64,000 nt of DNA from assembly GCA_030265395.1 (NCBI GenBank), contig JARFYF010000001.1, positions 99,520,804-99,584,803 of the forward strand, read 5' to 3'. Made by a program: the position numbers and the translations under genes. This DNA is from Rhina ancylostomus (Eukaryota). Of this stretch, positions 6,026 through 58,910 are shown piece after piece (position 1 is the first letter of the stretch; every line of letters starts with the position of its first letter). The notes beneath the pieces were generated by a model that was not told where the DNA came from, did not search any database, and saw only the letters and a list, made by a program, of their open reading frames with translations.

Positions 6026-8087
6026 CTTGTGTGGGCCAAGATTCAGAAGTAGTAAGCTCAGCTTGTGTAAATGTTTCTTTCCTGCATTCTGGTGGGAAGA
6101 TGTACAAAATATGCAATAAACATGGTCTTCTTTCTGTGGCACTCCTCACACAATACAGTAGTGGTAGGAGATCATTTTCAAAGTGAGCTATGCAATGAAT
6201 TCTCTTGCTTTTGTTCAGGGCACTTTTGAATTTGGACTTAAGTGTGCTTTTCCAAAAAGTCTAAGAAGTTCATTCAGTTTGATTGGAACGTTTTGACGAA
6301 GTGTGGGGGGGGGGGGTTGNNNNNNNNNNNNNNNNNNNNNNNNNNNNNNNNNNNNNNNNNNNNNNNNNNNNNNNNNNNNNNNNNNNNNNNNNNNNNNNNN
6401 NNNNNNNNNNNNNNNNNNNTGGAACGTTTTGAAGAAGTATCCCCCCCCCCCCCCAATGTGACAAGGTTGCTAATGATTTCCTCCTGTGCCAGCTTTGTCA
6501 CTGAACATATCACAGACAAATCTGTGAAGAGAACAAGATGCTGCCTTCAGACATGACACAAATAAAAATTGTATCCTGGCCATTCCTTGAAGATCACGGT
6601 AAAATTTGTCTATCGAAATTAAGAATTTGTCACATTTTCAATCATCAAACTTTCAATAGATTTATGAAGCATTTAAAAGTAATTAAATCCAATTGCCAAA
6701 TCCATTAGTTTATTTCATATTTTCTTGTGGACATCAAGCAGCACTGGGTATCTATCCTGTGCAATCAGCTAGATGACAAAGGAGATTACTCTTGAACATT
6801 ATATCCAATGTGAAATTAGCTTAACCAACTCCTATTTTTGGGGAATTCAGTTACATTTATTTTTACAACAAACTTTTATCAACTATTAACATAGAAATTG
6901 GTTTGCACACAACATTGGCACAAACGCAATAACAGCTAAGGATCATCAGATCAAACTAATGATCACATGAAATTGGTTCCATGAGATCATCAGTTCCCAA
7001 CCAGTGTGCTGGAAGCATCAGTTATGTCTTCTGAGATCAATGTGCCAGTCCCTGGAGATAACAAAAGGCAGCTTGTGTTGGCAGTAGGCCAGTGGTAATT
7101 CTGGGAGGGATGGCAGAACAAAAATCAGGAGGAGGAGTGACAATTCCTCTAGCTCCAGGCAAATAATAATAAGACATTTTATTCATCATTTTGCCATCTG
7201 GCGCTCGTGGACCCTTATTGCACTGTTGGTGTGGCCTTTTCACCTGGGAAAATTAATCACAGCACCATTTGGTTTGTGGTCAGTTGACAACTGATTTTGA
7301 ATAGAGAACTGAATTGAACATTAGGTCACCAAACCGTGAATGCAATGGGTCTAATAGGCCTGGTGCCGGTTTCAGATGAGTGCACTAGCTAATCCTCGGA
7401 AGCTTAATAATACGACTTGTAGTACCTACCCAGCCTGGATCTTACAGCACCCTTTGTTTGTGCCAAAGACAGACACTGTACAATCCAATTCCTGTCTCAG
7501 TTTCATTTGTACCATTACTTCAAACAGATACAGCACCAAGTACAGATTTGGTGAAAAGTCAGAAAATAACAAACCTTCATGCACTCAGAAGGGAGCTGTC
7601 CATCTGNNNNNNNNNNNNNNNNNNNNNNNNNNNNNNNNNNNNNNNNNNNNNNNNNNNNNNNNNNNNNNNNNNNNNNNNNNNNNNNNNNNNNNNNNNNNNN
7701 NNNNNNTTGGTCTGCTGGTAATAAGGTTAAGCTTAGTGTCTCCTTATTTTTTTGGGGGGGTGGATCAAGGTTCATCTTCAGTGCAAATCAATGGGACCAG
7801 TTTTTCATCTCTGCTGCAGCAAGGATCTCCTAACAAAAACTAGTTCATTGTGGGATTAGAGTCATAGAGCAATATAGCACAGATGCAGGCCCTTCAGCCC
7901 AACCAGTCCATGCCGGCCATGGTGCACGTGCAGGAATTGGTCACAAGCATGGTGTGGGTAGAAAATAAAGCCCCATGTCAGTAGTCTTCATAGAGGTTGA
8001 ATAACATTGTTATACCATCATAGTGTTTCAACTTGAAATACTTCAGCCTGAACCAGTGAACAAGTTTCAATTCAGAGTACTGATCAT

Positions 8088-8305
8088 ACAAGAATACAAG
8101 AAAATAGGAGCAGAAATAGGCCACTCAGCCCCTCAAACCTGTCCTACCATTCAATATGATCATGGTTGATCTATCCCAAGTCTCAACCCCACTTCTGTGC
8201 CAGGTTCCCCATGGATGTTAATCATGCAGTCTTTCAAAAATGTGACTCCCTCTCATTAAGTACCTCCCATGATCTAACCTTCACAACCCTCCACAGTAGA
8301 GATCC
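8088..8305 (-). mobile_element. CR1-like LINE 3' tail just downstream of the PAPPA2 donor
   Basis: aagaaaataggagcagaaataggccactcagcccctcaaacctgtcctaccattcaatatgatcatgg is the reverse complement of the CR1 tail seen at about 5950-6020. Confidence 0.8.
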
Positions 8306-8340
8306 CCTGATAATGCCAATGAAAGTAAGGCGAGTCTTAC

Positions 8341-8717
8341 CTTTCTGGAGAGTCAGGGTCAAAACAAGTTTTCCGCACATCTGTAATCGTGGGATCGCAG
8401 CAGTCACCATCATCAAAATCATCCAGGATGCTGTTGCATTCCATGTTACAGATCCCATCCCGCCGCTTCCAAACATAGCACCTTCCCAGGAATCGGCAGT
8501 CCCCACCATCATAGCCAGTCATGGGGTGGTCACACTCAGGGTCACAGTGGTCATTCCCAATTTTGCTTGTCTCACAGTTTACCAGGATGATTCGGTTCCG
8601 AATGGTTGAGTTGAGGACCTCAGTAACAGTGAGGTCCCAGGTTATGTTATACCTGCTGAAAGCCCTGTTCAGCGCTTGGTGTTGGAGCTCAATCTGCTGT
8701 TTTGTAACTGTGGGGTT
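8341..8717 (-). CDS. PAPPA2: Pappalysin-2 internal coding exon (3' part of the large exon: start of metalloprotease domain plus LNR1 and LNR2)
   Basis: Minus-strand translation: [126 protein letters not shown]. This closely matches recalled human PAPPA2 (…[28 protein letters not shown]…[13 protein letters not shown]), better than PAPPA. Phase-2 donor AAG|GTAAGA at 8341/8340. The 5' boundary is uncertain (candidate acceptor at 8709-8708). Confidence 0.93.
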
Positions 8718-9649
8718 TTAAAGAAAAGACTTCAAATGCAATCACTGTGATCCATCCAAGTAGAAAACGACTCCTTTCATCTGGATGATCAAAGGGATCC
8801 TAATTACCAGAAACATTCTCATTTCATTGAGTAAGTCTTTGAAGAGCAACTGATACTTTTCCAGTGCACATGCAGAATATTCATGCTTCATTGCAGTGAA
8901 GATTTTATTATCCACAAGTGGCAAATTATCCCAAAGGATCTTTTTGAAGAGATCCTGGGCATTTTTGGTACAAATGTGTAAAAAATTATGTCCTTGAAAA
9001 TCTTAGGTTCCTGGATAATTATTGGGTTCAATCTGGAGAAATATTATTGTTCTAGGGATACTTCACATTCTGAATTTATTGATTTGACTGGTGGAATTTA
9101 ATCAACAGCAATGATCACTTGATCCAAAATGTATATTGCTTGATGAAATAATTCTCTGTATTCAGACTATGACTTATGCATGTTAAGGTCTTCCACCAGA
9201 AAAGGCTTTTGGTTTAGAACTGTCCATCAATAGACTCAGACACCATTTATAAGGTACTTCCAACATCAGGGTCTTCCAAATGCTGAATCAGTTCTAGTAG
9301 CCAGCAAGTGATAATATCAAGATTATTAAAGAAAGAATTCTCTGGTAGCTATACTCTCTTATTCAGATCAGCTTTTCCACATTTAAGTCAAGACACTAAT
9401 GAGTAGGCTTCAAGGAACTATTAGGAGAACAGGGCTGATGATTAAGCTAACGTGATTACATCCCCAAATGGAGAATGGAAATGATAATAATGTAGATTCT
9501 TAAATATTAAATGATATAAAATGAGAAATCTGGGATGATGCGTAAATGGGCTAAAAATAAAATACAAAATTAAGGATACACAATTATGCAAGGTTAGTGA
9601 GGGGAAGATTCTAGGTGAGGGTTTGTTAGGCTCGTTTTTATAAGATAAA

Positions 9650-9942
9650 AGATATTTTTATTAGTCACATGTACATCAAGACGCACAATGAAATATATCT
9701 TTTACATAGAGTGTTCTGGGGTCAGTCCACAGGTGTGGCCATGCTTCTGGTGACAACATAGCATGCCCACAACTTTCTAACTGGTACGTCTTTGGAATGT
9801 GGGAGGAAACCAGAGCACCCAGAGGAAACCCACACAGACACACAGAGAGAATGTATAAACTCCTTACAGACAGTGGCTGGAATTGAACTTGGATTGCTGG
9901 CGCTGTAATTGCGTTACACTAATCACTACGCTACCATGCTGG
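9650..9942 (-). mobile_element. tRNA-derived V-SINE (HE1-like), Rex1-like tail variant
   Basis: Reverse complement shows A-box (tagcgtagtg), B-box (agttcaattcc), V-domain (gggtttcctc…gtgctc…tttcctcccacattccaaagacg) and tail …catgtgactaataaa. Confidence 0.88.
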
Positions 9943-10599
9943 TACAAATTGTACATTGGTGATATGGTCACCATGAGGCTCACGATGGGAGTTTGGGTAG
10001 AAGGCAGCTTTATCATTAATCATGTAAATTAGAGTAGGAGACAAATGACATGAGATTAAAAACTAATGAAGTTTTCTATAAGGTAGCTTCAAAGAATATG
10101 TAATTATAGAAATGCTTTATGATCGAAAGGGTCATAGGTCTCCACACTTGCATTCCTTAGTAGCACCATATTTGAGAAAGATGACCAGAAATATGATCAA
10201 AGAGGCAGGCTCATAAACATTGGGGAAAACAAGCAAGATGAAAAGGTTTTGAACGAGAGAATTCTTAAGAGTATAACTAGGACATCCAGATGGTAATAAT
10301 GGAAGCAGCAATGGATTCACAGACCAGACTCAAAGACAGGAACGTGGGACTACTGAAGGAAGTGGAATAAGCCCAAAAGCCAGAGGATTTGCAAATAATT
10401 ATTGTGAAAATTAATGTGGTGAAGGTAGACTGGAGCTTTAGGGTTCATCCAACAAAACATTTCAGTAATTCAGGGAAAAACATCATAGCAATTTATCAAA
10501 CAATATTTGACTCTGGGACCATCAAGAGGGTAATAGGCTTGCTGTCTAAAAGTTTGGTTAAACAAGTGGGTGTTAGAAAGAAGGAGGTGGAGGGGTAGA

Positions 10600-11640
10600 A
10601 TTTGTTCTGTTTTATCCACTAGGTGCACAATGTAGCAACAGAGATGTGTGGAACCCTTTTTCTGGAGTGAATGAAACCAAATTTCATTGTACAACAGTGA
10701 ACGAATTTCTGTCCTGGGGAGACTGTAGTAATAAACTCCAGAGAGCATAGGGCTGCAGCCGATGGTGGAACAATTAATTTCAAGGATGATTTTTGTGGCC
10801 AGAATCAGCGAAGCACAGATAACCCAGAGAGGTACAGGGCCGCAAACTTGAGAAGAAGAGAGATCATGGAGGAGTTTGAAGGCATGGAATAAAAGATTAA
10901 AAAAGGATGTCATTTTAATGCATTTTAAAATGTCATTGTATTTTAAAATATAGTATAGCCAATATAGAGCAACAATTATAGATGAATGAAATACAGTGCA
11001 ATTTTGGACAAATGGACTGAGTTTAGAATGACTGTGAAAAGGGAGCAACTTGCTGCAATCATTAACATTTTTGTGCATGTCAAAGCTCAAGAAGACAAGA
11101 AAGAGTCTAAAAAGTCAAGTCTGAAAGCCATTTAAAATCAGGAATGTCAGGAACAGGCTGGAATTCTGTTGAGGTAAGGTTAGAGCAGACATAGAGATAA
11201 GATCTTACTGATAAACCATGGATTCTGATGAAAGGTCTCCGATCTGAAAATGTTAACTTTATTTCTCTCCCAACAGATGCTGCTTGACTGGTTGAGTATT
11301 TCTGGTGCTGACTGTGCCAGCTTCTGCACTTTTGCTTTTTGAGAGGGTGCGGGATTTGTGGCTCAACTCTGGCTGAAACAGATCAGAGGAGGTTTCATAT
11401 GATTGGATTCAGACTGGGGGAAGCAACAGTGGAGGAGGAATGGAATTAAGGGCAAGGCAAATTATTTTGCTTCAATTTACACCATATTCAGTTGAAAGGA
11501 GTATTGGCTCACCAGTGACATCATACAAGTCTTGTAACACACGAATGTCATGGAGAGGAATTTAGGTATTATCAGCTCTCACTTGAATAATATCCATATT
11601 CCTGAGTGGCAGATTGAAATAAGGGATTATAGATGGTGTC
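10600..11640 (-). mobile_element. Highly decayed L2-like LINE fragments
   Basis: Purine-rich plus strand with L2-type phrases (gggagactgtagtaataaactcc, aggcatggaataaaagatt, aaattattttgcttcaattt). Confidence 0.45.
11222..11340 (+). mobile_element. Penelope-like terminal fragment with hammerhead-type core
   Basis: CTGATGA(11225-11231) a AGGTC tcc GATCT GAAA atgttaac, followed by tttctctcccaacagatgctgcttgactggttgagtatttctgg. Confidence 0.7.
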
Positions 11641-11819
11641 TTGTGATATGTCCAAGTGTATTTGTGTGGTTGGATAAAATAATTGAAGAAAATAATTGAC
11701 CCATGGGAGAAAGAAAAACAGGTGGAAGAGGATTGGGAGGTTACAACAAAATTAACAGAGAAGAAGAAGAAAATTTCATCAAGAAGAACTTAGTTAAGTG
11801 CAGAGGGAAATAATAGTGA

Positions 11820-12400
11820 TAAGAACATACAAACATATCATTTAGAAACAGAAGTAAGCCTCTTGGCTTTCAGGCTTCTTCTCCATTTGATAAGATTATG
11901 GCTGATCTGACTGTAACTTCAACTCTGTATTCCAGTTTACCTGTAGTAACCTTTCACTTCTTGTATATCAACAATCTATCTCTGTCTTAAAATATTCAAA
12001 GACTCTGTTTTCACCTCGAATTGAGGAAGAGAGTTCCAAAGGAGCGCAACACTTAAAGAAGAAACAAAATTATCTCATCTCTTCTGTATATGGGTGATCT
12101 TTTCTTTTTAAACTGGGCTCCTAGTTCTCAATTCTTCCACAAAGGGAAGTATCCCCTCTACATTCCCCATCAAGAATCCTCATCTTGCATGTTGCAACCA
12201 AATCACCTCTCACTCTTATGAACTCTAGCAGTTACAAACCCAGTCTGTTCAACCTTTCCTGTTAAGACACTCAGCCCATTCCAGGTACCAGTCTAGCGGA
12301 CCCTACCTGAACTGTTCAAATGCATTTGCAGCTTTCCTTAATAAAATGGAGACTAATACTGTACACAGTACTCCAGATGGAGTCTCACCAATGTCCTTAA
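11820..12400 (-). mobile_element. CR1-like LINE 3' portion
   Basis: Reverse complement of the CR1 tail and of the HLEYCV coding motif (gtacacagtactccagatg). Confidence 0.8.
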
Positions 12401-12409
12401 CTTCTCAGA

Positions 12410-12695
12410 GCAAACCCAGCAATCTAATTCTCCTGCTTATTTTTTTCCTGTGATCTTCTTTCTCTTTCACATCCCCATCAACTCCACAATTCACGTGCCA
12501 CCTACCTCGAGGTGTAATTTACGACAGCCAGTTAACCCCCTGACCAGCAGGTCTCTGACATGCAAGAGGAAACTGAAGAACCTGGAAGAAAGCTGCATGG
12601 TCACAAGGAGGATGTGCAAACTCCACATTGATGGCACAGAAGATCAGAATCAAACCTGGTTCACTCTATTTGTGAGACAGTTGCATTATCTGCAG
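12410..12695 (-). mobile_element. Degenerate V-SINE
   Basis: gaggaaactgaagaacctggaagaaagctgcatggtcacaaggaggatgtgcaaactccac is the reverse complement of the V-domain. Confidence 0.75.
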
Positions 12696-14899
12696 TAAAA
12701 AATCCTGGTGCCTTTGTTCGTTTTTTAAGTTGTTCAAGCACCAGGTCAAGTTTCAATTGAGAGATCAAGCAATGAACAACTTGGGCCATTAGGTGTGCTT
12801 CAGTCTCCAGCCTTTAGGCTGGAGCAGGAACACTCAAGTGATGGGATGAGAGCTGGGGAAATGTTTATTGCACGTGAGGGGCTGGAGGTGGAAAGGTGAC
12901 TGTCAAATGAGAGATAAATAAGACTGGAAGAAAAATAGGCTTCACGTAATAATAAAGGGAATAGCATTAGGTATGGGTGATACAACTTAAGACTGGAGAC
13001 AAACAAACAATAGTAAGGACAATGTGAATTCTAAGATTGGTTGAACCAAAGGATAAAGAAGGGACAAAAGGTGCTTTTGGGGGTGGTCTATCAAATAGTG
13101 AAAACCGAGCTCATAATGGTCTAATGGCTGGTGAAATGTTCATCAATATTAATAAAGATGGAAATCAAATGATACTGTTTGTTTCAAAGCTTAGTTTATT
13201 GAAAACTAAATTCTAATAATAATAATGAGGAAAGGTATTATGTCTCTCTGCTGAATGTGCAATCACTGTATAATGTATGATAGATGCAGAAATCGTCTCG
13301 CTTTTCTACAGATAAGTTTGATGAACAGCTCTGGAGAAACTGCAGGGGACATTCCCTGCTGGTGTGCTTCACATTCGTTTTACTGCACGCCATCACATCT
13401 GTCAGTCAAACCCAAACAAATCTACCAAAAACTGAATTAAACTGCTCTCCCCTAAGTGCCTTCTACTTCAAATGACTGATATCAGTAACATGCAAATATT
13501 TTGCTCCCCACTCGTGCCAATCGGAATCCCAAAATGTACTTGTAGCTGTTACCACATGTCAACTTAACATGCTGATATTCTCCAGACAGGCCCTCAGTGA
13601 TGATGTTTCATGCTAACATTGTAGATCAGGCAAAATTCAAGATATGACTTCCCATCATCAGCAATCCTCTTTTCATGGAAGCATGGAACACGTAATCAGG
13701 TAATGCGCAGGAATTCGGAAAACAAGGGTATAGCACCAAGTAGTGAATGTGGATTTGTTGTTGCTAATTGAAAAATGAAACAAAAATATTACTGAGTAGC
13801 TTTGTTTGGGGAGCAGGAAAAAACAATGTCATGTTGAAATTACTGCTGTTACACAATTAGCAACAATACCAAACTAAAATCTCATTTGCATCTTGAAGAA
13901 TCACAACATATTTACCTTCAAAGTGATATTTCCAGGATTATGAAAACATCATCAAATCCCTGCTGGGACACATAAATATCACAAAAATGAATGACACACC
14001 AAGTTAACTGATCTTTTTGCACTGACAGAATTGCTCCTAATGAAGAACTTGTTCAAGTCTGATGCACAGATTTCAAATTACACCTGGCTGTGAAGAAATG
14101 GAAATTGGAGAGCCAACATTAAATTCTGAAATGACATTACAGTTTAAGGTTGTGAAAATGAAGTTGAATCAAGTTCCCAGGTAAAGATGGTAAATGCCCA
14201 ACCAAAACATTGAGACAGACTTTGGTTACCTGTAAATACTGGAGGAACAGAACGGCTCGGCAGAGCTTGAAAAACTGTTCAAAATTATGATGGGTTTTGA
14301 AGGACTAAAATGAGAAGATCCTGCTTCTACTTGAAGAATAGTTAGTAACCAAAAAAGATACTTGACAAATGAACAGAAGGGTCTTGAGGGGAATATTTTT
14401 TTATTCAGCTTTTTTATTTAAATAAACTGTGTAATGCATCTTCTGGCATATTAATGCTGGTAACCCTGTTTCTATGAGTGTGTTCACACTGTGATCCAGA
14501 TTGGACAGTGGATTCATATGGTGTGCCTGATTTGCAGCAATGTCATATTGCCACAGACAGTCTGAAACATTCAAGCTCACAGCTTGAAGACTCAATGTGC
14601 AAATAGTTTAAAGGTGCTGTCTTGCAAGTAAATCATTATTTTGCATTGTGTCGTAATGGCTTTGAAAACTGAAAAGTCACAATGAAAGTGGCAACATTTT
14701 TGTTTGAAAGAGTGTTAAAGAACATGGATGTCTCTCACTTGCACATTTTACGTAACTTGGAAACTGATTTTTTGTTCCTGCAGTGACATTTCTCCGAGGC
14801 TATATATGTACTGACAAGAATACATACCACATTGTTGAGGGACAACAGCATTGGCTTACCATGAAACTATTAGCTACATCACTGTTGAATAGGAATAGG

Positions 14900-17650
14900 A
14901 TAATGCAACTGGCCTGACTGGCTTAATGTGCATGACTAACCTTGGGAACCATTCAGTTTTTATACCAGGTTAATGAATGGTCCAACATCCTGAAGGTTGA
15001 AGGGAGACAGTGAAATGTGATACATGAGCAAAAAGAGCAATATTCCTGATGGGAGATAGGACCAAAAGCATATGGCAAGCTGACAAATTCTTCTGCACAA
15101 CACTAGGTGATAGATTGTTTCTTTAAAGATGTTCTGCAGAAACTGAAAGATTAATTTAATTCAAATTAATTAAACCAGTTGAAAGCTGTTTGGGTTAAGG
15201 ATCCAGAAAGATGGCAAGATGATTCACAAACATATATGCATTGGAATTTTGGTGCCCTTTTACACCGTACCTTCTGTATTAGGGACGGACTGGTAGATGA
15301 ACAAATTCTGACCAAGCTACTGAGAAATGGCATGTCAAATTGTTGGAGATTTTTCCCAGCCCAAGGGATTATATTGCCACAGTCCACTTATTGGAGAACC
15401 AATGTAGAATCCACGGCTACTAAACCATATTGGTAATGCCCTGCAAGACCAGTTGAAACCATTGCCATTGTTCACTGATGTCCATCACTCAGCACAGTAT
15501 TAGTCCAGCCATGTGGTTCAGTTGCCAAAGGAAAGGTCATATTTCAAAAACCTGCTAACCGAAAGCTAAGACAAGCAAAATAAAAACAACTACAGTGACA
15601 ATTTGAAACAACAAGAGAAGGAAATAATTCATAGTTTGAAAGCACATTCTGACAAAGGAGGAACAGACTGCTAAATAAAGTGCTGCTTACCAATCAGGGT
15701 ATTGACGTGAGAATTGATATTGCTGCAGACTATTTGGTAATGAGTCAAGTAACCTGCTCTCGCAAGTTCATGCAAATGTTGTTGACAGTGAACACTGCCA
15801 AATTGAAGCACTACTTCGGTCAGGTTTTCTGGACATTGGAACAAGTGGAGTGCAACATGCTGGACAGCAAGTGCAGCTTTAATTGGAAAGACTGGCTAAT
15901 ATAACCAAGGCAACATGGGAAATATATTTTCTGCAAAAATGCGCATTGGTAAAAGGTTGCAAAGGTACAAGAACACAGTTGGAGATGGCTACACTGGTAT
16001 TTTGCTTGCATTTACACCAGACTGGATGCAGAGCAGGTCTTTTGCAGGTTTTGTACGTTTTTCATTGCACCTGTGCATATGAAAATAAACTCAACTTTGA
16101 CTTCAAACCAGTCCTATGTACTCTAAAGGTGCAAGTTGAAAAGGAACTGGATAGGTTAGAATAAAATGTTGTGCTTGTGAAAGCCAATCATTTGATGCAG
16201 TCCATACCAATAGTGGTTGGGTCAAAGGTAGCAAATAAAAAAAATGTTGCGTGGAAATGACAAAGTCACAATCAAACAAGCTGAATAATACTCTGCTTAA
16301 CCTGACCCTAAAGGACGTGCTCTTCCTACCTTGGCTGTCCTGCTGCTTGTGTGCAGAGCTAGCAGAATCAAGGGTATTCACAAGATTAGACGTCACCCAT
16401 ACCTGCACACAACTGAATTTTGATAATGGTAGTGGCATCAACATACACACAGGGTAACTGCAGGAGTAGAGCACTGTGGAGTCATGAATTTGCCCAAGAT
16501 TTTCCAGGCGACAATGGATAAAATCTGTCAAGGAGTAGACTTGTGTAACCAGGATGATTTGTTGATTGCTACGATAACAAAAGCCTCTGATTTCTGAGAA
16601 AGCGTTTTGAAGATTATCTGAGCACAATATGAAGCTGAAGCCAAGCAAATGTACCTTTGCAATGTGAAGAGTGTGGCTTTGTTTGCAGGTTGATACCAAA
16701 GGAGTATAACCATCATAAGTAAAAGTAGAGGCCATATCCAGTAACCTGAAAATATAACAGATCTCGGCCCAGGGATGCAATTACTTCCTGATCTTGTGTC
16801 AGTGCTTAAATCATTACATTGCCTATTGAAAACAGCTGTGAAATGGAGTAAGGATTAAAAGCAAACATTTGATAAATGCAAGGCCTGGCTCTCCTTGTTC
16901 ATTGTGATACTATGTGCAAATTACAGTTGGCATGTGATACGTCTAGTTATGGTGGAGGTATAGCATTAAGTCACATGATGGATGATGAGCAAGAGAAGTC
17001 ATTTCACTTCCTGGAAGCTCACAAAGAGCAGGCACAATTATGCATAAATCAAGAAGGAAGCACTTGGAATTATAGTTGGAATTTAGAAGGGTTATCAGTT
17101 TTTACTAAACAGATCCTTTATCGTAATAACAGATCATAAACCACTAAAGGCAACATTAAATTCCAAATCTGTGATATCTCCAATGGCAGGGTACAAAGAT
17201 ACACAATCCTTCTAACAGAGTATGAATGTTCATTTCAGTACAAAATTCCAAGCTGAATACAAGTGCTATGTCATGACTACTGCCTGGAAGACTGATGCTG
17301 GAAGTGAATGGGTGATCTACACATTAATTATCATTGGTAAAATCGTTCCAGTGATTGTGTCCAAAATTACAAAGGTGACCCAGAAAGGCCCATTATTGAG
17401 AAGGGTCTCTCAACTGACAACGTACTGATGGAGAACTGAAATCATTCCACAATTTTTTCAGTTAGTCGTCTTGTGAATAGAGATTCATCCTATTCACAAG
17501 ACAAATCACAAGAAAAGAGGAGTCAAAGAGTGGTACCAACTATTATTTTGGGAGAAAATATTTTGGCCAGACTTTATATTAAACACATTGGAATAGTCAA
17601 AATGAGAGTGGCCTTGCAAATTAACTGCTATATCTGTGAATGTGAATACA
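14900..17650 (+). mobile_element. Decayed Ty3/Gypsy LTR-retrotransposon internal region (gag-pol remnant)
   Basis: Collinear pol motifs across broken frames: KPVLCTLKVQVEKELDRLE (RT N-terminus), RVFTRLDVTH…INIHTG (RT), LVHCDTMCKLQLACDTSSYGGGIALSHMMDDEQEK (RNase H), RVVP…ILARLYIKHIGIVKM (integrase zinc-binding region). Many stops and frameshifts. Confidence 0.85.
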
Positions 17651-17949
17651 AATTAACTGCTATATCCGTGGATTCTAACAAGAATTGGATAAATACTTGA
17701 AAAGGAAAGCATTTGAAAACAATTGAAATGGACTATGGACAAAGAATAGATAAAGTAAGGCAAATGACATGGATCCTACAAATAAATGGCACAGCCATCA
17801 TAGGCTGAGTGGCCTCTAATTGTGCCCAAAGGTTGTGTGAACATCTCCACTCCACTGTGAGGGAAACAGATGTATTTCTTCTCTATTTTGGATATGTCTG
17901 GGGTTTAAAAGCTGCAAAACAGCTGTTCTGTGGGTGGATCACAAACAGA

Positions 17950-18550
17950 CATACACACTGGGGGCAGGATTTGGCCATTCAGTCCCTCAAGCCAGCTCTG
18001 CCATTAAATAAGATCACTGTCACCTCCTTTTTACCTTTCACTCAGTTTCTTATCTGCTTGTGCCTTAAAATTATCCAAAGACTCTGCTTCCACTGTCCTT
18101 TGTGAAAGAGTTCCAAAGACTCTCGACTCTCTGAATGAAAAAAAAATTGTCCTATCTGACCCTTTATTTTTAAAATAGCAAAGTCTAACTCACTGGAGGA
18201 AAGATCTTTTCCATATTTACCTCACCAAAATTCCAAATTCAAATCCCCTCTCCTTTGTCCAGACTAGCAGACACAAGCCTTGCCTGTCCAATCTTTCCTC
18301 AAGACAACACAACTATTCCAGGTATTAGTCAAGTAAACCTCCTCAGAATGTTTTCCTTAAAATATAGATTTTGGGGCTGCAACAGTTTCATCAGGTTACA
18401 ATGCTTAATTCAGCATTACCGTTTCAATCACAGGTCTTCCTTATTTCAATATAAAACAGAGAACTCTCAGCCACATCAACTTGAGTGCCTATCGACGTGG
18501 CTGGGAACCCTTTCTTGTATTTTGAATTGAAGATGACCTGTATTCATACC
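17950..18550 (-). mobile_element. CR1-like LINE 3' fragment
   Basis: ggccattcagtccctcaagccagctctgccatt…aagagttccaaagactctcgactctctga is the reverse complement of the CR1 3' end. Confidence 0.7.
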
Positions 18551-18559
18551 ATCCAAATG

Positions 18560-19020
18560 TGACAGTTAACATAAAAGGAAATCCAAAAACCTTTTATCAG
18601 CATGCAAATAGTGAAGAGGTACTGAAAAGTGGGATGGGACCTATCAAGGACAAAGGAGGAGATACAAGTGGAGAGATCAGGGAAAAGGCTAGAATATTTA
18701 ATGAGTATTTTGCAGCTGTATTTACTGAGGAAAGTTTGACTGAAGTGGAGGTGGTAGAGGTGATGGATGTGGTGAAAACTGATTGGCAGGTTGTTTTGGA
18801 AAGGCTATCTAAGCTTAGAACGGATAAGTAATTTGACCAAGATGCCTTACATCCCAGTTTGTTAAAGGGGTAAGGCAAAGGAAGGGCTTGCCATAGTCTT
18901 CCAATGTTTTCAGGCTGGGGATCAGGGGAGAAGGGAGAGCTGCCAGATAATTGGAAAGTGGACAATGTGACAACCTTGTTCCAGGGTGAGGGGTACTCTT
19001 TATTACTACAGGCTAGTAAC
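18560..19020 (+). mobile_element. CR1 ORF2 fragment (endonuclease-RT linker)
   Basis: NIKGNPKTFYQH…GPIKDKGG…ARIFNEYFAAVFTEE…LSKLRTDK, then PDNWKVDNVTTLF. Confidence 0.85.
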
Positions 19021-19059
19021 CACATCATTCCTTTCAAACTTTCAAGGAAAATAAAAAGC

Positions 19060-21480
19060 AGCTGCTACAAGTCTACATGAAGAAAAACAATAGCAAAAGC
19101 AAATACAAATTCTCCTGCTGGTGACTGTAATGGGGAACAAAGAAATGGAGGGGCAACTAAATAAATACTTGGGCTCTGTCTTCACAGAACAGGATACAAA
19201 TAAATTCACAGAAAAACTAGGGAACTCACAGTTGAAGAGGGCAAATTAAAGAAAATGCCTAGGCTAAAGAGCTGTAGAAATTAATGGGACTGAAGCTGAT
19301 AAATCCCTTCGGCCTGGTCATCTGCATCCCTGAGCAGTAGAAATAGGAAAAGTTACTGCATTTGCTGTTATCTTCCAATATTCTATCGATAAGGGAACAG
19401 TTCCTGTAGATTGGAGTTTGGCAAATGTTAACTCCACTATTTCAAAAAGATGATAGAGAGAAAACAGGAAACTACAACTTGGATAGATTGACTTCAGTAA
19501 ACCGGAACCATGCTCAGTGCTCAGGTTGCCCTCTGAGGAATCAGTGCTAAAAGGGGCATTATATGTAGGCAGATGCATTACCAACTGTTCTGCTGTGCCG
19601 GTATCCTGGTGTGATTCATCACCCTCATCTACTGGGAACCTGGCATGAATTCCTGCCTTCAGCTTGCACTCTTACAGCAGTGAATAGCCCCACAACTTGG
19701 TACGAAGAGGTTGCGTGTGAATGCTGGTGTTGTGTGGGCCAGGGCGACCGATGGGACTATGTTGTGGTGAGATATGAGGATCAGTATTGTACCCTTTCTG
19801 GCGCAGGGAGTGTGGGCCATTACTGGGGATTGGCACAGGGGGAGGGGGTATCTTTATTAGTCACATGTATATGAAAACACACAGTGAAATGCATCTTTTG
19901 CGTAGAGTGTTCTGGGGGCAGCCCACAAGTGTCACCACACTTCCAGTGCCAACATAGCATGCCCACAACTTCCTCACCCATATGTCTTTTAGAATGTGGG
20001 AGGAAACTGGAGCACCCGGAGGAAACCCATGCAGACGCAGGGAGAATGTACAAACTCCTGCAGACCACTTGGATCCTACAATCTCCCTCATCGCCACCTA
20101 TCAGATGTAATGGAAGCTGCTCTCTCCCCTTCTCCTTCCTAGGCTGCACAGCTCTCCTAGAGACTTCTCCATGACAAGTGAGCATCATTGAACTTGTTAC
20201 TATGAGAAATCTCCAGGCTGAGTACACTCAGAAAATATCTACGGGATTAGACCGAGTCAACATGGATTTTTGAAAGAGAAATGGTATCTAACAAAACTTA
20301 CTGGATTTTTAATGAAGTTGCAACTAGTAGAACAGATAAACAGCAGAACCAGTGGATGTGGAGGATTTGGATATTCAGAGGGCTTTGATGAGGCCCCATC
20401 TAAGAGGTTAGCGTGCAAAATTAAAGCATGGGATTGAGGGTACGGACTGAAAATCGGTCGACAGTCATGAAACAAATGGAATAAATGGGTCTTTTTTTGG
20501 GAGTGACAGCCAACGATCAGTGCTTACCCTCCATTTATTCACATTATATATAAATGATTTGGATGAGGAAACCAATTTTAATATTTCTGAGTTTGTTGAT
20601 AACTTGAAACTGGGTGGGATTGTGAGTTGTGAAGAGGATGCAGAGACGCTTTCAGGCAACTTAAGCAAGTTGAGTGGGGGCAAAGGCACAGCCAATGCAA
20701 TACTACCTGGATAAATGAGAAGTCATCCACTCCAGTAGGGAAAACAGGAAGGTCAAGTGTAACTTAACTGGTGATGCAATGGGAAATGTTAATGTTCAAA
20801 GAAATCCAGGCGTCCTTAAAACATCAGTCACTGAGAGCAAATCTGCAGTTGTTGCAAGTAGTTCAAAGAACAAATGGTATATTGTCCTTCACAGAAACAG
20901 GGGCAAGAATGTCTAAGTACAGTTATATAGAGCCTTGGTGAGACCACACCTGGAATACTGAGGGCAATTTTGGTCTCCTTACTAAATAAAAGATGAGCTT
21001 GTCATTGGTGAAGTGCAGCAAATGTTCATCAGTCCAATTCCTAGGATGGTAGGACTGCCACATGAGGACAAATTGGATTGACAAGCCATGTGGTCACTGG
21101 AGTAGAAGAATGACAGAAGATCCCATTGTGATGAACAGAAGTCTGGCAGGGCTGGACAGACGTGGCTAAAAATCTAGAATCAGAGGTTGGCTGAAAATCT
21201 CGAATCAGAGGTTACAGTCTCAGGATATGGGATCAGGACAGAGATGAGGAAAAATTTCTTCTCTGCAGTTAATGAACTTGTGAAATTCTGTACCACAGAA
21301 GCTGTGCAGGTCAAGCCACTGAATATAGTTATGAAGGAGATAGATTGATTTCTAAATACAGAAGGTATCAGGGACCATAGGGAGAGAGTGGGGAGATGGT
21401 ATTGAGGTAGGGAATCAGAGTTAATTTTAAGAAAGATTAGGCAAGTTCAAAGGCTGCCTTCCACTCCTGGCTTTCTGTGC
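19060..21480 (+). mobile_element. CR1-like LINE (ORF2 RT to 3' tail) split by an insertion of about 730 bp at ~19500-20230
   Basis: WSLANVNSTI…NY motif ends at ~19495 and resumes with SQHGF at ~20255, then LFTLYINDLDE…FVDNLKLGG, LVRPHLEY and the tail. Confidence 0.85.
19850..20062 (-). mobile_element. V-SINE (5'-truncated) nested in CR1
   Basis: V-domain plus tail tctttattagtcacatgta…; near-identical to the 9650 and 31066 copies. Confidence 0.88.
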
Positions 21481-21599
21481 TTCAAGAAACCATGCAAATG
21501 ATCTGTGCAATATCACCCAGATGTCTGCTGTGTTCATGCTTCCTGTAACCAGTGTGGAAAGGAGAGTTGGCTATTTCATACAGTTTGATTTGACAGTAA

Positions 21600-22080
21600 T
21601 CGAATGAAGGGTGCCATCAACAGCTTCTTTATACCTAGACTCAGTTTGTCTAACCCTTCATAAATTATTCTGCTGCCCCTGTCCCAAGTCCTGTTCACCC
21701 ATAACCCAACTACAGTTAGATAAGCAACACCACAATTTCAATATTCATATCCTCCTTACCAAATCCTTATATCATCTTCTTATCACTATAAATCTCATGC
21801 AGCCCCAAGTTCCTTCATAATGTTTGCACTCCTCCAATTCTTGTCTTTGGTCATCTCCAAATTTAGTTGCTTCCCTGTGGATGGCTCTACCTTCAGCTGT
21901 CAAGCCACTACGTTTGGAATTCCCTCACTCAACCTCTCCTCTCTTTCCTTCTTTAAGGCATCCTATCAAAGATGCAGTTTCATTGGCCCCAATATCTCCT
22001 TCCATGCTCTGGGACAATGTTCCTGTGAAATACTTTGTGACATTAAAGGTGCAACATGAACTCAAGCTAATATTGCTGTT
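21600..22080 (+). mobile_element. L2-like LINE 3' end
   Basis: aagtcctgttcacccataaccc…ccttcagctgtcaagcc…tggaattccctc…cattaaaggtgc. Confidence 0.65.
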
Positions 22081-22559
22081 GTTGAAGGCAACTCAAGGTG
22101 AAGAAACAGGGCTGTCCAAGTGGCTTGTAAAGACTGAGAGGTATCAGAATCAGTTTAATCAGTAAAGTTTCTCAACTCTCCATCACTATGTCTACCACTA
22201 TCCCATCACGTGTGTTATCATAGCTTATTAGAACAGCGAAGGCATGCAAGATGCTGCGATAACAACCATTATATTAATGAATGAAGTGAGCATGACATCA
22301 TGGTCATTCAAGAAAGGATGCATAATGTCGATGAGTAATTGAGCTCAATAATAACAGCATGATCCCTCTTCTTACAGGTTTCATGCCATTGGCACCAAAG
22401 TAAAATTATAGTAAAGAACAATTTTCTGGCCTATCCTTCAGAATATTTCCTTGGTCCAAACCCATGTTCTGTGGGCCAAGGATGAAGCAAACAAAAACTT
22501 ATTGCAGTTCATCCCTAGTACCCTACAGTCATTTTATCTCCTTAGCTCCATGTCATCTA

Positions 22560-22900
22560 GGATGGGTGGCTCAGTGCCCAAGACTACTGCTTTCAGCTCC
22601 AGTGACCAGAGTTTGATTCAGATCTCCAGTGTTGTGTTTCTGGAGTTTGCACCTTCTCCCTGTGACTGCGTGCCTTTCCATTGGGTATTCTAGTTTCTGC
22701 CCACATTCCAGAAATGTGCTGGTTGGTAGGCGAACTGACTACTCTAAGTCGCCCCTAGTATGGGTGGTGGCAGAAGAACTGGGGGAGGAGGTGATGAGTG
22801 ATGGCGACATGAAAGGAAGACTGTGGGATTAGTGTAATTGGGTGTTTAATGGTCAGTGCAGATGGTGGGACAAGAGCCTATTACTGTGATGCATGATGAA
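22560..22900 (+). mobile_element. Degenerate V-SINE with CR1-like tail
   Basis: gtggctcagtg…cagctccagtgaccagagtttgattc…ggagtttgcaccttctccctgtgactgcgtg…cccacattccag. Confidence 0.8.
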
Positions 22901-23607
22901 GCCTCGAAACAGGAATCTTCTTTAAATTTGCTATTCTTGCCTTCCACTTGCTTCTAATTCCTTTCTCCTTGGAAGTGCCCAACTTTAGATTGTTTTTGGA
23001 AAAGTGCGTCACGATTGAACATGGGGTATTTATCACACAAATCTCCATTTGGTCCCACGTTGACTAGTTGCCAGCTGCTCGTTGGACAGCCATTGCATCT
23101 ACAATCAAGCCTTCACAAAGCCTGCAGCTGTCGTTTCAAATCCCCCAGCTCAGCAAAGGTAAATTGCATGGGGGCTGCGCTTAGCCAGGGGAAAGTATCA
23201 TTCATGCAAGTTGATCCACCACTTCTGCTGGAAGGGATCATCAGACAGCAGATAAGAAATATAACCTCAGAAACACTTGGGCATGACCACATTAACATTC
23301 AGGGCAGTGACAATCTAAAATTTCAGAAAGCATTCAGTTTGTGAGATTACCTGAAGTGATCTCAGGAAATTGTCCTTCCCCTAGAAGGATCAGAATTGGA
23401 AAGCCTTAACTGAAGGGGACTAGGCATCCAGAGACTAAAAGAAATATTCACAGAATACAACCAATCCTTGTTTGAAAAATATTAACAGATTTAAAATTAA
23501 GTCTTTCAAAAATGCCATCAAATTTCTTGCCCACTGTCTTTTCCACAGGTAACAGAGAAAGTGATGTATCAGTTTTCCAATTTTGAAACAAGTCAAGATA
23601 TTGAGTA

Positions 23608-23790
23608 TGTTACGTACCAGCAACAAAAGAAACACACCGAGACATGTATAAATGTTAAAAACTACTTTATTAATAACTACTTATNNNNNNNNNNNNNNNN
23701 NNNNNNNNNNNNNNNNNNNNNNNNNNNNNNNNNNNNNNNNNNNNNNNNNNNNNNNNNNNNNNNNNNNNNNNNNNNNNNNNNNNNAGCACA

Positions 23791-39372: not shown

Positions 39373-40255
39373 TTATAGAGTCATACAGCATGGAAAGAGG
39401 CCCTTCGGCCCAACTCATCCATGCTGAATGTGTTGTCCTGTGAGCTAGTCCCATCTGCCCATGTTTGGCCCATATAGCCCTCTAAACCTCTCTTATCCAT
39501 GTACTTATCTAGATGGCTTTTAAATGTTGCTAATGTGCCTGCCTCGACCACTATTTCTGGCAGCTCATTCCAAATATGCATCACCATTTTCTTGCGGCAG
39601 CTGTCCTTGATGTCCCTTTTAAATCTGTCACCTCTGATCTTAAACTTATGTCCTCTTGTTTTTAAGCACTTCCTCCCTGGGAAAAAGATTGCGCTTTCAC
39701 CCTGTCTATGCCAAGGATTCAGGTCACCTCTGAATCTCCTACACTGCAGGAAATAAAGCCCTAGTCTATGCAACATCTCCTTCTAACTCAGACCCCCAAG
39801 TCCAGCCAACATCCTGGTAAATCTTTTCTGCACTCTTTCTAGTTTGATAACATCTTTCCTGTAACAGGTGACCAAAATCATACATAATACTCCAAGTGCA
39901 GCCTTAACATCTTATGTAACTGCAAAATAACTTCCCGATACTCAATGCCCTGACTGATGCAAGCCAGTGTGCTGAACACCTTCTTCATCACCTTATCTAC
40001 CTGTGACACTGCTTTCAGTGAATTATATACTTGCACTCCTACGTCCCTCTGTTTCATAACACTCAAAGGCCCTACCTTTCACTGTACAAGTCCTACCCTG
40101 GTTTGATCTCCCAAAATGCAATACCTCACATTTATCTGGATTGAAAGCCATTTGCCAATCCTCAGTCCACATACCCAGCTGATCAAGATCACCCTGTAAT
40201 TTTTCATAACCTTCTACACAATCTACAACACCACCTATTTTAGTATCTTCCGCAG
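39373..40255 (-). mobile_element. CR1/HER1-like LINE, 5'-truncated
   Basis: AEDTKIGGVVD…LQGDLDQLGMWTEDWQMAFNPDKCEVLHFGRSN, LRLHLEYYV, KTRGHKFKIRG…IWNELPEIVVEAGTLATFKSHLDKYM, then the tail. Confidence 0.92.
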
Positions 40256-42279
40256 CATTGAAAGGGTCAATCCAACGTACAGCTGATTTAGCTACTGGTT
40301 TGCATTTCATTATACTTATATGCACTTCATGCATCTTTTGGCAGATAATGATTCTGAATCCAACCAGCAGAACACCAGTTATAAATGGGATGTCATTTCT
40401 AATTAACTAATGTTTCACCATTGGCTGTGCTTGTTTCATCCAAATAACTGGATAGATTAGGTCTGTTTTGCTTCTGATTATAGGATCCTTTTCCATCATT
40501 GTTCTGCTTTCTGTTCTCAATACTGTCTTTTCCATCTCATGCTTTGCTGACAGCACAATTTCTCAAGCCCAGGATGGGAGGGCATCCATTTTTGTACACT
40601 ACACATGATGTTAACTTTATTTTGTTTGGAGTCGCTCAGATGTTGGTCATTCCAATTTGTGGGATTTTACGCCCTCCATGTTTCAAGATGTTTTCCTTCA
40701 AAAACCCATCTTCTTTCAGGTTTCCAGGGAAGATCTTACGGTGTAACCTGAATAATAATGATGACATTTTGACCTCCCACATACAAATTAAACTTGAGGT
40801 TGATAGTTGTAGGTTGGTTTTGCATTCTTTTTTTGATATGGTAGCAGGGATTTCATTTCTCTAGAGATCTCCGCATCCAGTCAGTCCAAGCAGACGTGTG
40901 ACTCCAATGTCTGGAGTATCCTCAAACTCCTTCACTTTCCAAAGCTGGGATGCTCTGATCTTGTTTCTTTTTCACCAATCCTTTACTTTTCCTTTGACAT
41001 TTCCCATTTTCACCATCAACTTGTACAGCCACTCCAAAGGTTGCCACGTAATCTGTGGTTTTAACTATATCCAGGGCATTTGCTTGTGTGAACTTATGTG
41101 GTCCTTGATAGGTTCTGCATGGCTTTCTATTAGTTTGATTTTCATTTTTCCCTCTTATTGTTAACTACTCGCTGCTTCCTTTCTCTGGATTGATCAGGAG
41201 GTCAATAGCCCGTGCTATAATAAGCTCCTCATTGCCGATCAAAGTGTCAAATGAGTTGGTCTACTATGTATTTTATATTTTCCTTGAAATTACTCATACT
41301 GGCCAAGTTTCAAGCTTTGCAAGGAAACAGCCATTTGGCTTGTTTTGGAACTCACCTGTGTGAACTTGACAATTTGATTTTGGCTGGAAGTATTCTCCAT
41401 ACTTTTCAAAGTTCTCATCAGACTTTTATTTCTGAACTCCCTGATTTCCTGGATGATTAAGAAGGTCCAAATCCTTTCTTTCCACCAACAGCATGATGTA
41501 GCTGGTCTTCTCTTCATCACTTATGCCTTTCAGAATATCAGTTCACATTTTTTTGCTTAAATTTTCCAATGACTCCACTTCGCATGCCTCTCAATTCATC
41601 ATAGGCTGGAACTGGTCTGTCATCACAGCTGTCTATTACACACTCAGTAAAGGCAAACACCACAGGGGAGTGCTGATTAGTTTTCAGAGTCAAATTCAGC
41701 ATTCACATCCTTCAAGCAGCATAGAATTTTACTGACTAGCTTACAGCCACCAGGTCATGCCTCATTTCCCCAGAGATCCATTTATAAAATTATCATACAA
41801 GGTGCAAATCTGCAGCTTACTCTATATTTTCTGACCACAGGCTATTTGCTGCAAAGAGATAGACTCCAAGATTTTGACACAGAATGCAGTGCACTAGTGA
41901 GTGATGTGGTACACCAAGTGCAAATTTGACACTTGTACCTATGATAATAAAATCCTCCTTCTTCCTTCCAGTTATATAACAGATTCTCCTCCAGTTTGGA
42001 AACTTACAAGTCTTTGCAGGAGACCAAAATCAGTAGGCAATAAAACCAGTAAAATATGTAATACAAGATTCAACAGAGGGGTTCCAGACACACCTGAGTG
42101 ACCCTAATGCAAATGTTGAGAACCTGATCTGCCATTTTTGTGCTTTAAAGAAATTATGCCATGCATTCAAATCAGAACGTCAGCTAAATAAATCTCTTCA
42201 GAAAAATTGTCAGGTCCACAGGAAGGCGCACAGAACAATAATGATGAATCACCTCCAAATTCAGGCTGTAGTCTGCACA

Positions 42280-44290
42280 GGGTCATAGAATTCTACAGCA
42301 CAGAAACAGGCCCTCTGGCCGACTATGTCCATACCAAGCTTTTTACCCATCTACATGTAGACGCCCTCTATGCCCTACCTTCATCCATCTCCTTGGTTAA
42401 CTCCTCAAAAAAAAAGCAATCAAATTAGTGAGGCAGGACTTCCTTTCAACAAAGCCATGTTGCCTCTCCCTAATTAGTCCCTGCCTTTCCAAATATACAC
42501 AAATCCCATGCTTTGAAATTTTCTCTAATAATTTCCCTACCACTGACACAAGGCTCACTGGCCTGCAGTTACTCAGCTGTCCATCATAAACAAAGGAACT
42601 ACATTAGCTATTCTCCAGTTTTCTGGCACCTTGCCTGTGGCTAATGAAGATGCAAAAATCTCCATCACGGTCCCAGCAACCTCCTCCTCCACTTCCCATA
42701 GCAGTCTGGGAAAGATCTCATCCAGCCCTGTGGATTTATCCACCCTTTCCACAACTGCCTTGAAGCTGAGAGAATTGTGGTCATTATTCCCAAAGTGCTC
42801 CCCAACTGACACTTCCACCACCTGCCCTGTTTCATTTCCTAAGAGGAGGTCAAGTATAGCCCCCTCACCGGTAGGGTGATCTACATAGTGTCTTAAAAAA
42901 AATCCATCTTGAATGCACTTAAATTCTACGTCATTTAAGCACCTTGCACTAATGTAATCATACTCAATTTTGGGAAAGATAAAATCCTGTACTACTATCA
43001 CCATATTACTTTTACAGCTTTGTGTGATATCTGTTCCTCTAATTCCTGCTGACTTTTGGAAGGCCAACAGTATAACTGCAGCAAAGTGAATGCCTTATTC
43101 CCAAGTTCTACCAATGTGGCTTTGTTGGACTATCCCTCCAGGATATCCTCACACTGCTGTGATGCTTTTCTCGATTAGCAGAGTGACTTCCCCTCCTCGA
43201 TTGCATCCCTCGCTGTCAGGCCTAAAGCTTCTCTAACCTAAAACATTCAGCTGCCAGTCATGTCCTTCACCCATCCACGTTTCTGTGATTGCAATAATAT
43301 CGTAGTTTCATGTACTGATTCGTGCTCTAAAATCATCTGACTTACCCGTGAGGATCCTTAAGGTAAATGCAGTTGAGCCGACCACCTACACCCCCTCCCT
43401 ATGATCCCCAATCTGCCCATGTCTGCTCTGTCCACTGGATTTGCTTAACTTATCCAATATATTTGGGCCAATCTGCACACCTGCCGCACACTGCTGAGTT
43501 TCTCACACCCCCTGCCAAATTATGCAAACCCTCCTGAGGGTGAGCAAACCTCCTTGCCAGGACAGTGGTCCCCTTCGAGTTTACATTTAATCCATCCTTC
43601 TTGTACTCATCTCACCTGTCCCAGAAGCAATCCCAATCATCCAATGACCAAAAGCCCTCTATCCTGCACCAGTTCTTCAGCCTCGCATTCCCCTGTTCTA
43701 TCCTCCTATTTTAATCCTCACTAGCATTGGTGAGCCCAAGATTACAAACCAAGGGGTCCAGTTTTTTAACCTTCTGCCTAACTCCCTAAATTCACTCAAC
43801 AGGACCTCATCCCTCATTCTACCTGTATCATTAGTACCAATCTGTGCTACGACCTCAGACTGTTCTCCTTCCCCCTTCACAATATTCTGAACCTGATCCA
43901 AGACAGCCGTGACCCTGGCACCAGGGAGGCAACAGACTATTTTGGAGTCTTACCATTGACTACAAAAGCATCTGTCCGTTCCCCTCACTAATGAATCCCC
44001 CACCATTACCACTTGCCTAGGTCTTTCCCCTCCCCCGCTGTGCATCAGAGCCGACCATAGTGCAACAATCTTGGCTGCTGCTGCCGCCACTTTCCTCAGA
44101 GAGGCTATTTGTCCCAACAGCCTCCAAAACAGTACACCTGTTCAAGAAGGGAATGACCACAGGACTCCTGCACTACTTTCCTGCCCTTTCTGGTGGTCAC
44201 CCACTTCCTCTTTCTGTACCTGCAGTGTGACCAACTCGCTGAACCTACTGTCCACCATATTTTCTGCATCCTGGATAGTCCATAGCAAGT
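42280..44290 (-). mobile_element. CR1-like LINE with ORF1 (SGNH esterase-like) and an internally deleted ORF2
   Basis: ORF1 motif VVAQIGTNDTGRMRDEVLLSEFRELGRRLK. Endonuclease motif HPTGEGAILDLLLGNE…GEHFGNNDHN is fused directly to DKSTGLDEIFPRLL…VPENWRIANVVPLF. Confidence 0.9.
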
Positions 44291-57175: not shown

Positions 57176-57842
57176 TCCTAAGCAAATGACCCACATGAGA
57201 AATATTCAAAAATTATAATTGTAAAATACTTTGAAAATATTATGCTTTGTAGCATAGCTGTAAGTGACTTTTTAAATGCTGCCCCAAGCAAATCAGATAG
57301 GTGGTAAGAAAAAAAGTTGTTATAATCCTCAGTTACAAGAAATTTATGATTGATTATAAATTCTACCTTAATCTTGCACATCTTACAAACTTCAATTTGC
57401 ACTCTGGTAAATATTTCAACTATTGGCTAAAATTGTGATTTTTACTTTTTTGTTTGCAGTCTGAAAATCCTTCAAAGTAATTGGCTCTGTAGGCATACAG
57501 AATGCATGGAATCCTTCAGAATCAAAGTCAGGACAAATACCATTGATGTGTGGTATTTACTAATGTTAATACCTCCTGCATTGGTCATTGACTGGACAGT
57601 TCAGCAGAGGGCAACATCATGATCAGCACCAGATAAAGTTTGCTTGCACTCTGAAAGCTCATGTGCACCTCTTAAAGACACACACCTTTTCCCAGCACTA
57701 TTGCAGACACATTCTACCACTGAAGCTGATCTGACAAACACTGAAAAATAGTGCTCCAAGTGTGGTCTCACCATTCATAGCAAGACTTCCCAACTTTTAT
57801 ACTCCATTGCCCTGCTGTAGAGGCCAAAGTTTCATTCATCTT

Positions 57843-58910
57843 CATGTTCAATACCATCATCTCCTCAGTACTAATGACCAAGCTTCAAAACCTGGGCCTC
57901 TGTACCTCCCTTGGCATCTGGATCCTTGACTTCCTTATTGGGAGATCACAGTCAGTGTGGATCGGTAATAACATCTCCTCCTTGCTGACTATCAACACAG
58001 GCGCACCTCAAGGATGTGTGCTTAGCCCACTGCTCTACCCCCTCTACACTCATGACTGGCTCAGCACAGCTCAAACACTATCTATAAATTCACCGATGAC
58101 ACCACTGTTGTTGATAGAATCTCAGATGGCAATGAGAAGTCTTACAGGAGTGAAATAGATGAGTGGTGTTGCAACAACAACTTCACACTCAAGATCAGCA
58201 AGACAAAGGAACTGATGGTGGACTTCAGGAAGGGGCGGTCAGGAGAACACACACCACTCCTCATTGAGGGGTCAGTGATGGAAATGGTGAGCAGCTTCAA
58301 GTTCCTGGACATTGACGTCTCAGAGGATCTATCCTGGGCCCAACATATTGATGCAATGATGAAGAAGCCATGCCAGTGGCTCTACTTTATTAGGAGTTTG
58401 AGGAGATTTGATATGTCACCAAAGACTTACGAATTTCTATAGATGCACAGTGGAGAGCATTCTGACTGTTTGCATCACCGCCTGGTATGGAGNNNNNNNN
58501 NNNNNNNNNNNNNNNNNNNNNNNNNNNNNNNNNNNNTTAGCCAACTCCATCACGGGCACAACACTCCCCACCATCGAGGCCATCTTCAAGAGACAGAGCC
58601 TCAAGAAGGCAGCATCCATCATTAAGGATCCTCACCATCCAAGATGTGCCCTCTTCTCATTACTACCATTGGGGAGGAGGTACAGGAGCCTGAGAACCCA
58701 AACTCAGGAACAAGACAATTCAGGAACAGCTTCCACCCCTCCACCATCAGATTTCTGAACGATCCACAAACACTCCCTCATTATTCTTTTTTTTTGCACT
58801 ATTTATTTATATTTGTAATTCATAGATTCTTATGTCTTTGCACTGTGTACTGCTGCTGCAAAACGAATTTCACGTCATATAAGTCAGCGATTATAAATCT
58901 GATTCTGAAT
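57843..58910 (+). mobile_element. Rex1/Babar-like LINE (RT C-half plus 3' end)
   Basis: WILDFLIGRSQSV…TINTGAPQGCVLSPLLYPLYTHD, KFTDDTTV, VDFRKG…SFKFL, FYRCTVESILTVCITAWYG, AASIIKDPHHP; tail aaatctgattctga. Confidence 0.92.

Follow-up and report, generated by a model that had tools for sequence, protein, structure and literature searches.

Results

A PAPPA2 exon piece and its break

The stretch of DNA analysed here (64,000 nt; hereafter the window) corresponds to positions G000:C1:99520804-99584803 of the assembly and carries, on its minus strand, an open frame from 8717 to 8340 that begins with the residues NPTVTKQQ (NPT at 8717-8709) and runs into a splice donor (GAAAG/GTAAGA) at 8341. The exon piece that contains this frame corresponds to residues 430-555 of the shark/ray protein P0005, i.e. 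to the start of the metalloprotease domain with LNR1 and LNR2. The encoded peptide aligns to residues 305-429 of 8sl1_A and is identical to five shark and ray proteins at 112-117 of 125 residues. It is nearer to PAPP-A2 than to PAPP-A (E 1.4e-66 for PDB 8sl1 vs 5e-47) and only 63% identical to the PAPPA paralogue on scaffold C56; by these comparisons, the piece is assigned to PAPP-A2, not PAPP-A. The coordinates of the features discussed below are collected in Table 1.

Just before the exon piece lies an in-frame TAA (8720-8718), followed by unrelated sequence and joined to it without any N, exactly as a previous, sequence-only reading of the window had described. The same reading let the exon homology end at 8717; its open frame, its NPT and its donor held, while the end point shifts to 8719, up to which exon contigs of three relatives match the window. 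Judging from P0003-P0005, the AA of the TAA is probably the end of the Gln codon in Q-N-P-T. As for the exon as a whole, P0005 implies a length of 1,063 nt and gibbon P0014 one of 1,072 nt, and the intact PAPPA paralogue exon of the same genome measures 1,057 nt with one 389-aa open frame (C56:20400178-20401234), which bears out the single exon of about 1.07 kb given in the earlier reading. No other PAPPA2 exon was found by tblastn in the window (six cartilaginous-fish proteins) or in the 40 kb on either side of it (two cartilaginous-fish proteins), in agreement with the reported absence of the LamG and propeptide regions near the break.

The N-free contig with the junction extends from 7707 to 23684 (16 kb). 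The assembly is strongly fragmented here: the window (1-64000) holds thirteen N runs, six of which are exactly 100 long, and is itself closely preceded by a run of 1,073 N.

Table 1. Features in the window, with positions counted from its first letter
Feature	Position	Strand	Remark
3' 379 nt of the large PAPPA2 exon	8341..8719	-	very probably belongs in the N run G000:C63:59566728-59567772
GT donor, phase 2	8339..8340	-	fits the next PAPPA2 exon on C63 (tttag/G ACC TAC ATG, C63:59520360)
First part of the following PAPPA2 intron	7745..8340	-	short interspersed repeats near 7855-7925 and 8086-8300
38-nt contig end	7707..7744	+	overlaps C63:59566690-59566727, at the edge of the C63 gap
100-N gap	7607..7706	.	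other end of the probably misplaced piece
C1 scaffold DNA, single-copy and repeat, unrelated	8720..23684	.	rest of the same N-free contig
21-nt word common to the PAPPA2 exon and the unrelated locus	8699..8719	.	probable switch point of a chimera; in X2, X5 and X9, exon contigs match up to 8719 and foreign contigs from 8699
Proposed cryptic acceptor AG	8708..8709	-	coding letters (ACA GTT, Thr-Val) inside the shared 21-nt word
Decayed retroelement, weak Pfam RT_RNaseH_2, below cut-off	16876-17136	+	
Decayed retroelement, weak Pfam RVT_1, below cut-off	57781-58155 (within 57781-58973)	+	

The candidate splice acceptor

At the junction, the minus strand reads tcttttctttaaaaccccacAG/TT, and splicing after the AG at 8709-8708 would give a 367-nt piece with phases 1 and 2. 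These letters and this geometry, which the sequence-only reading had offered as a frame-preserving acceptor, are correct; their interpretation as a splicing signal is not supported. The AG and the aaaaccccac part of the tract (half of it) are PAPPA2 coding letters within the shared word; the foreign side contributes no more than the T-rich part. By a loose rule, the window contains 399 acceptor-like sites on both strands, or one per 321 nt, and one in three of them would be in phase. Since sites of this kind are so frequent, the candidate acceptor does not rise above chance and its letters provide no evidence of splicing.

The other PAPPA2 exons on scaffold C63

A protein search of the whole assembly, as the sequence-only reading had proposed, recovered both the LamG half of the exon and the propeptide exon on scaffold C63. 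Using P0005 as the query, we obtained 28 matches in G000, 19 of which lie at C63:59.33-59.62 Mb on the minus strand, in protein order, and extend from residue 1 to 1693. Eight further matches belong to the PAPPA paralogue on C56, and the remaining one is the window itself (residues 429-556), which covers the very stretch that is missing from C63, where no P0005 residues were found between 406 and 555. This search used a stricter first look that may miss short exons, and a few short stretches (e.g. P0005 1018-1044 and 1568-1622) are unmatched on C63.

The propeptide exon is present on C63 at its expected place in the order. The LamG half (P0005 residues 212-405) is open, free of stops, recognised by Pfam as Laminin_G_3 (PF13385, E 1.5e-12) and situated between N runs of 2,305 and 1,045; besides, the first 191 residues of a 349-aa single-exon homologue match C63. 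Since the initial 11 codons of this PAPPA2 exon are lost in the 2,305-N run (G000:C63:59568357-59570661), the LamG piece is left as a 584-nt island between two gaps. Altogether, this region of C63 is heavily gapped, with 35 N runs in 120 kb. The splice phases of the neighbouring exons on C63 (1 before, 2 after) are compatible with the piece in the window. Further downstream, the zinc-motif (catalytic) exon is intact, with the M43 motif HELGHILGLYH, at C63:59512144-59511827, because of which the PAPPA2 gene does not look pseudogenised. If the window piece belongs to this gene's gap, the animal would possess an ordinary full-length PAPP-A2 consisting of signal/propeptide, LamG, an M43 protease with LNR1-2, M1/M2, CCPs and LNR3.

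Fit of the window piece to the gap on C63

The LamG half breaks off at the 1,045-N run (C63:59566728-59567772) and not at a donor. At the far edge of this run, the last 38 nt before the gap are identical to window positions 7707-7744 at 36 of 38 letters, in the same orientation; the two mismatches could be end errors, alleles or a sign of two copies. The 21-nt identical core of the overlap occurs exactly twice in G000, namely in the window and at C63:59566695. Besides, the size of the gap can be predicted. From NYN, with which the LamG piece ends (plus 2 nt), to NPT there are 24 residues in all seven orthologues checked; adding the corresponding 70 nt (24 residues less the 2 nt present) to the 973 nt of the window (7745-8717) yields 1,043 nt, compared with 1,045 N in the assembly.

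The 68 unassembled coding bases were found nowhere in G000 with a 56-aa query. DNA searches for a second copy of 7707-8340 and of 8600-9600 in G000 turned up, for each, nothing beyond the window itself except repeat-level matches (74-87%). Masked stretches read N as well; were the 1,045-N run of that kind and not an assembly gap, the gene on C63 would be complete and the window would carry a second copy of the piece.

The junction in contigs of related organisms

Contigs from four of the twelve listed public sequencing runs (X1, X2, X5 and X9) were compared with window positions 7750-9600; X2, X5 and X9 represent three other, related organisms from three studies. In these three, exon contigs match the window up to 8719 and then continue with 495 (X2), 631 (X5) and 982 (X9) letters unlike it, which would be LamG-coding sequence. 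Contigs of the foreign side start matching at 8699 and are preceded by 631, 1,030 and 880 unlike letters (X2, X5 and X9, respectively), and the stretch 8699-9600 is contiguous in contigs of X5 and X9. Both sides of the junction hence continue differently in three of three related organisms. Given these end points, exon and foreign side are two separate loci in the relatives that overlap in the 21-nt word 8699-8719, at which the assembly would switch from one to the other. In G000, the word occurs only once. The sequence-only reading had named long reads that leave the junction for LamG-coding sequence as the mark of an assembly artefact; discontinuity was indeed seen, at the level of contigs from relatives (X2, X5 and X9) rather than in long reads of this species.

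For a given 21-mer, a chance partner is expected at about 0.002 per genome, and genome-wide around a million such pairs are expected, so the shared word needs no biological explanation. A false join would be expected to pass through a word of this kind.

X1 may be the source of the assembly and hence not independent evidence. Its pieces cover 8544-8706 and 8717-9600 (the latter contiguous) at a depth of 3.6-5 and bridge neither the window junction nor the alternative continuation; its long pieces do not differ from the window. Other letters appear in X1 at only 9 places over 1,851 nt, repeats included, with no diverged second copy there. Contig depth, a weak measure, was 5.3 and 3.6 for the exon and 5.04 for the foreign side, with 8.4 for one intron contig between repeats. 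Among 40 of the 101 difference rows (32 contig pieces), 12 of the 13 exon differences between contigs are synonymous, and the single amino-acid change sets X5 and X9 apart from the window and X2. Such a pattern is as expected for a working copy, and an identical, very recent copy would look alike.

Discussion

Origin of the junction

Taken together, window positions 7707-8719 represent 1 kb of the PAPPA2 gene, the remaining exons of which reside on C63, and were very probably joined by the assembler to unrelated C1 sequence through the shared 21-nt word. We envisage that, in a fragmented short-read assembly, a C1 contig was carried through this word into the PAPPA2 exon rather than on into the sequence that truly adjoins it. 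The extension would have run to the next contig end, with 68 coding bases dropped from the assembly and a gap of corresponding size left at the home locus; later scaffolding would then have put the 16-kb chimeric contig on C1 by its larger part. The TAA and the apparent acceptor would be by-products of the join. Support comes from the home-locus gap, which fits the piece to within 2 nt and shares with it a unique edge overlap; counting against it, the true neighbours are absent from G000 and were not seen there (68 bases missing, a single 21-nt word). Most likely, the odd junction is therefore a genome-assembly mistake and not new biology. Of the three options raised in the sequence-only reading, the last, a misassembly or a pseudogenising rearrangement, is upheld in its first half by the C63 exons, the gap fit and the relatives' contigs, and its second half looks improbable given the intact catalytic exon.

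The main competitor is a real and very recent 1-kb copy of PAPPA2 (exon half plus intron start) that microhomology-mediated template switching at the 21-nt word would have placed in the C1 chromosome, the near-identical copies then having collapsed in the assembly and left the gap on C63; the C1 copy would be dead, as it has neither promoter nor upstream exons. We consider this unlikely. Junctions made by microhomology-mediated repair likewise carry a shared word, the collapse of a two-copy repeat would produce a gap of such size too, the two mismatches in the 38-nt overlap would suit two copies, and X1, which bridges neither form, does not refute the junction. However, the unique flank of a collapsed repeat should reach as far as the repeat, whereas the LamG contig stops 68 nt short of it, and the other end of the piece is a contig end at a 100-N gap rather than a second junction. 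Neither is the exon depth in X1 raised over that of the foreign side (again, a weak measure), nor is there a diverged copy in X1 or more than one copy in G000. If the duplication were real after all, for which the chances are slim, it would be an insertion specific to the species or individual, at a word ancestrally present at both loci, caught in the act in a cartilaginous fish.

The two remaining options of the sequence-only reading accept the junction as a feature of a functional gene, and we regard both as extremely improbable. According to one, a deletion removed most of LamG and the cryptic acceptor rescues the frame to give a LamG-less PAPP-A2, a reading to which the phase-1/phase-2 geometry of the 367-nt piece lends itself. 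It is contradicted by C63, where both the LamG-coding half and the propeptide exon exist with open frames; moreover, C1 has no further PAPPA2 exon within 40 kb of the window or among the 28 P0005 matches, and acceptor-like sites are as common here as described above. According to the other, for which the phase-compatible AG could be cited, the exon is interrupted by a lineage-specific intron longer than 55 kb. It founders on the location of the flanking exons, upstream and downstream, on another scaffold, where the 5' half lies among the gene's other exons and, 68 nt short of the break, gives way to an N run instead of a donor. The PAPPA paralogue exon, too, is one open frame, and the relatives' genomic contigs do not continue into the supposed intron of the window. 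Across the break, 114 of 120 homologues show the same spacing (searched with a fixed pattern), including single-exon-sized entries that end at the donor, and of the six that missed the pattern three do have this region, with a single letter of the motif altered.

Comparison with known systems

Like known pappalysin-2 (PAPP-A2; PDB 8sl1; shark/ray P0001, P0003-P0006), the gene on C63 has a propeptide exon, LamG, the HELGHILGLYH exon and the later exons in order. At the protein level, nothing different from pappalysin-2 emerged; only the placement of 1 kb differs, and 68 nt as well as the first 11 codons of the exon fall into gaps. Most likely, the PAPPA2 gene itself is thus ordinary and the break is not a real biological feature. 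The domain order of PAPP-A2 is LG, MP with LNR1/2, M1, M2, CCP1-5 and LNR3 (PMC10613257). Among the papers listed in our literature search, none was recognisably on a split or LamG-less PAPPA2 from sharks or rays, and none on an exon misplaced across scaffolds at such a shared word. A real LamG-less form would have offered a natural experiment on the role of LamG in PAPP-A2.

With templated insertion or segmental duplication mediated by microhomology, the present case shares the short common word at the junction and a 1-kb piece that comes from another chromosome. It departs from this scheme in that neither the assembly nor X1 shows a second copy, in that there is no second junction, and in that a matching gap exists at the donor site. 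In short-read vertebrate assemblies, false gene models have been traced to gaps that split exons, to wrong letters at the edges of gaps and to pieces put in the wrong place (PMC5632298). The gap-associated misassembly described there concerns local errors and repeats. Here another chromosome-scale scaffold is involved, and the switch occurs at a 21-nt word between single-copy loci. The assembly contains, within a conserved exon, an N-free join of two chromosomes that comes with a plausible stop codon and splice acceptor. Before gene loss, domain loss or intron gain is claimed from this genome, the other half should be sought in the whole genome and the sizes of nearby gaps checked.

Surroundings of the break

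Astrotactin was uninformative for synteny, as its hairpin domain (PF18577) has no match on C63 and its sole match in the genome lies beside PAPPA on C56. This match, at C56:20672951-20673091, is 270 kb from the PAPPA exon on the same scaffold. In the window, 94 of the 177 N-free open frames of at least 72 aa were searched against Pfam; no host gene was found among them, only the PAPPA2 LNR match and weak retroelement matches (Table 1). Further frames at 40026-40406, 39384-39782 and 42576-43094 on the minus strand and at 18526-18828 on the plus strand are presumably decayed LINE ORF2 fragments, judging by their motifs.
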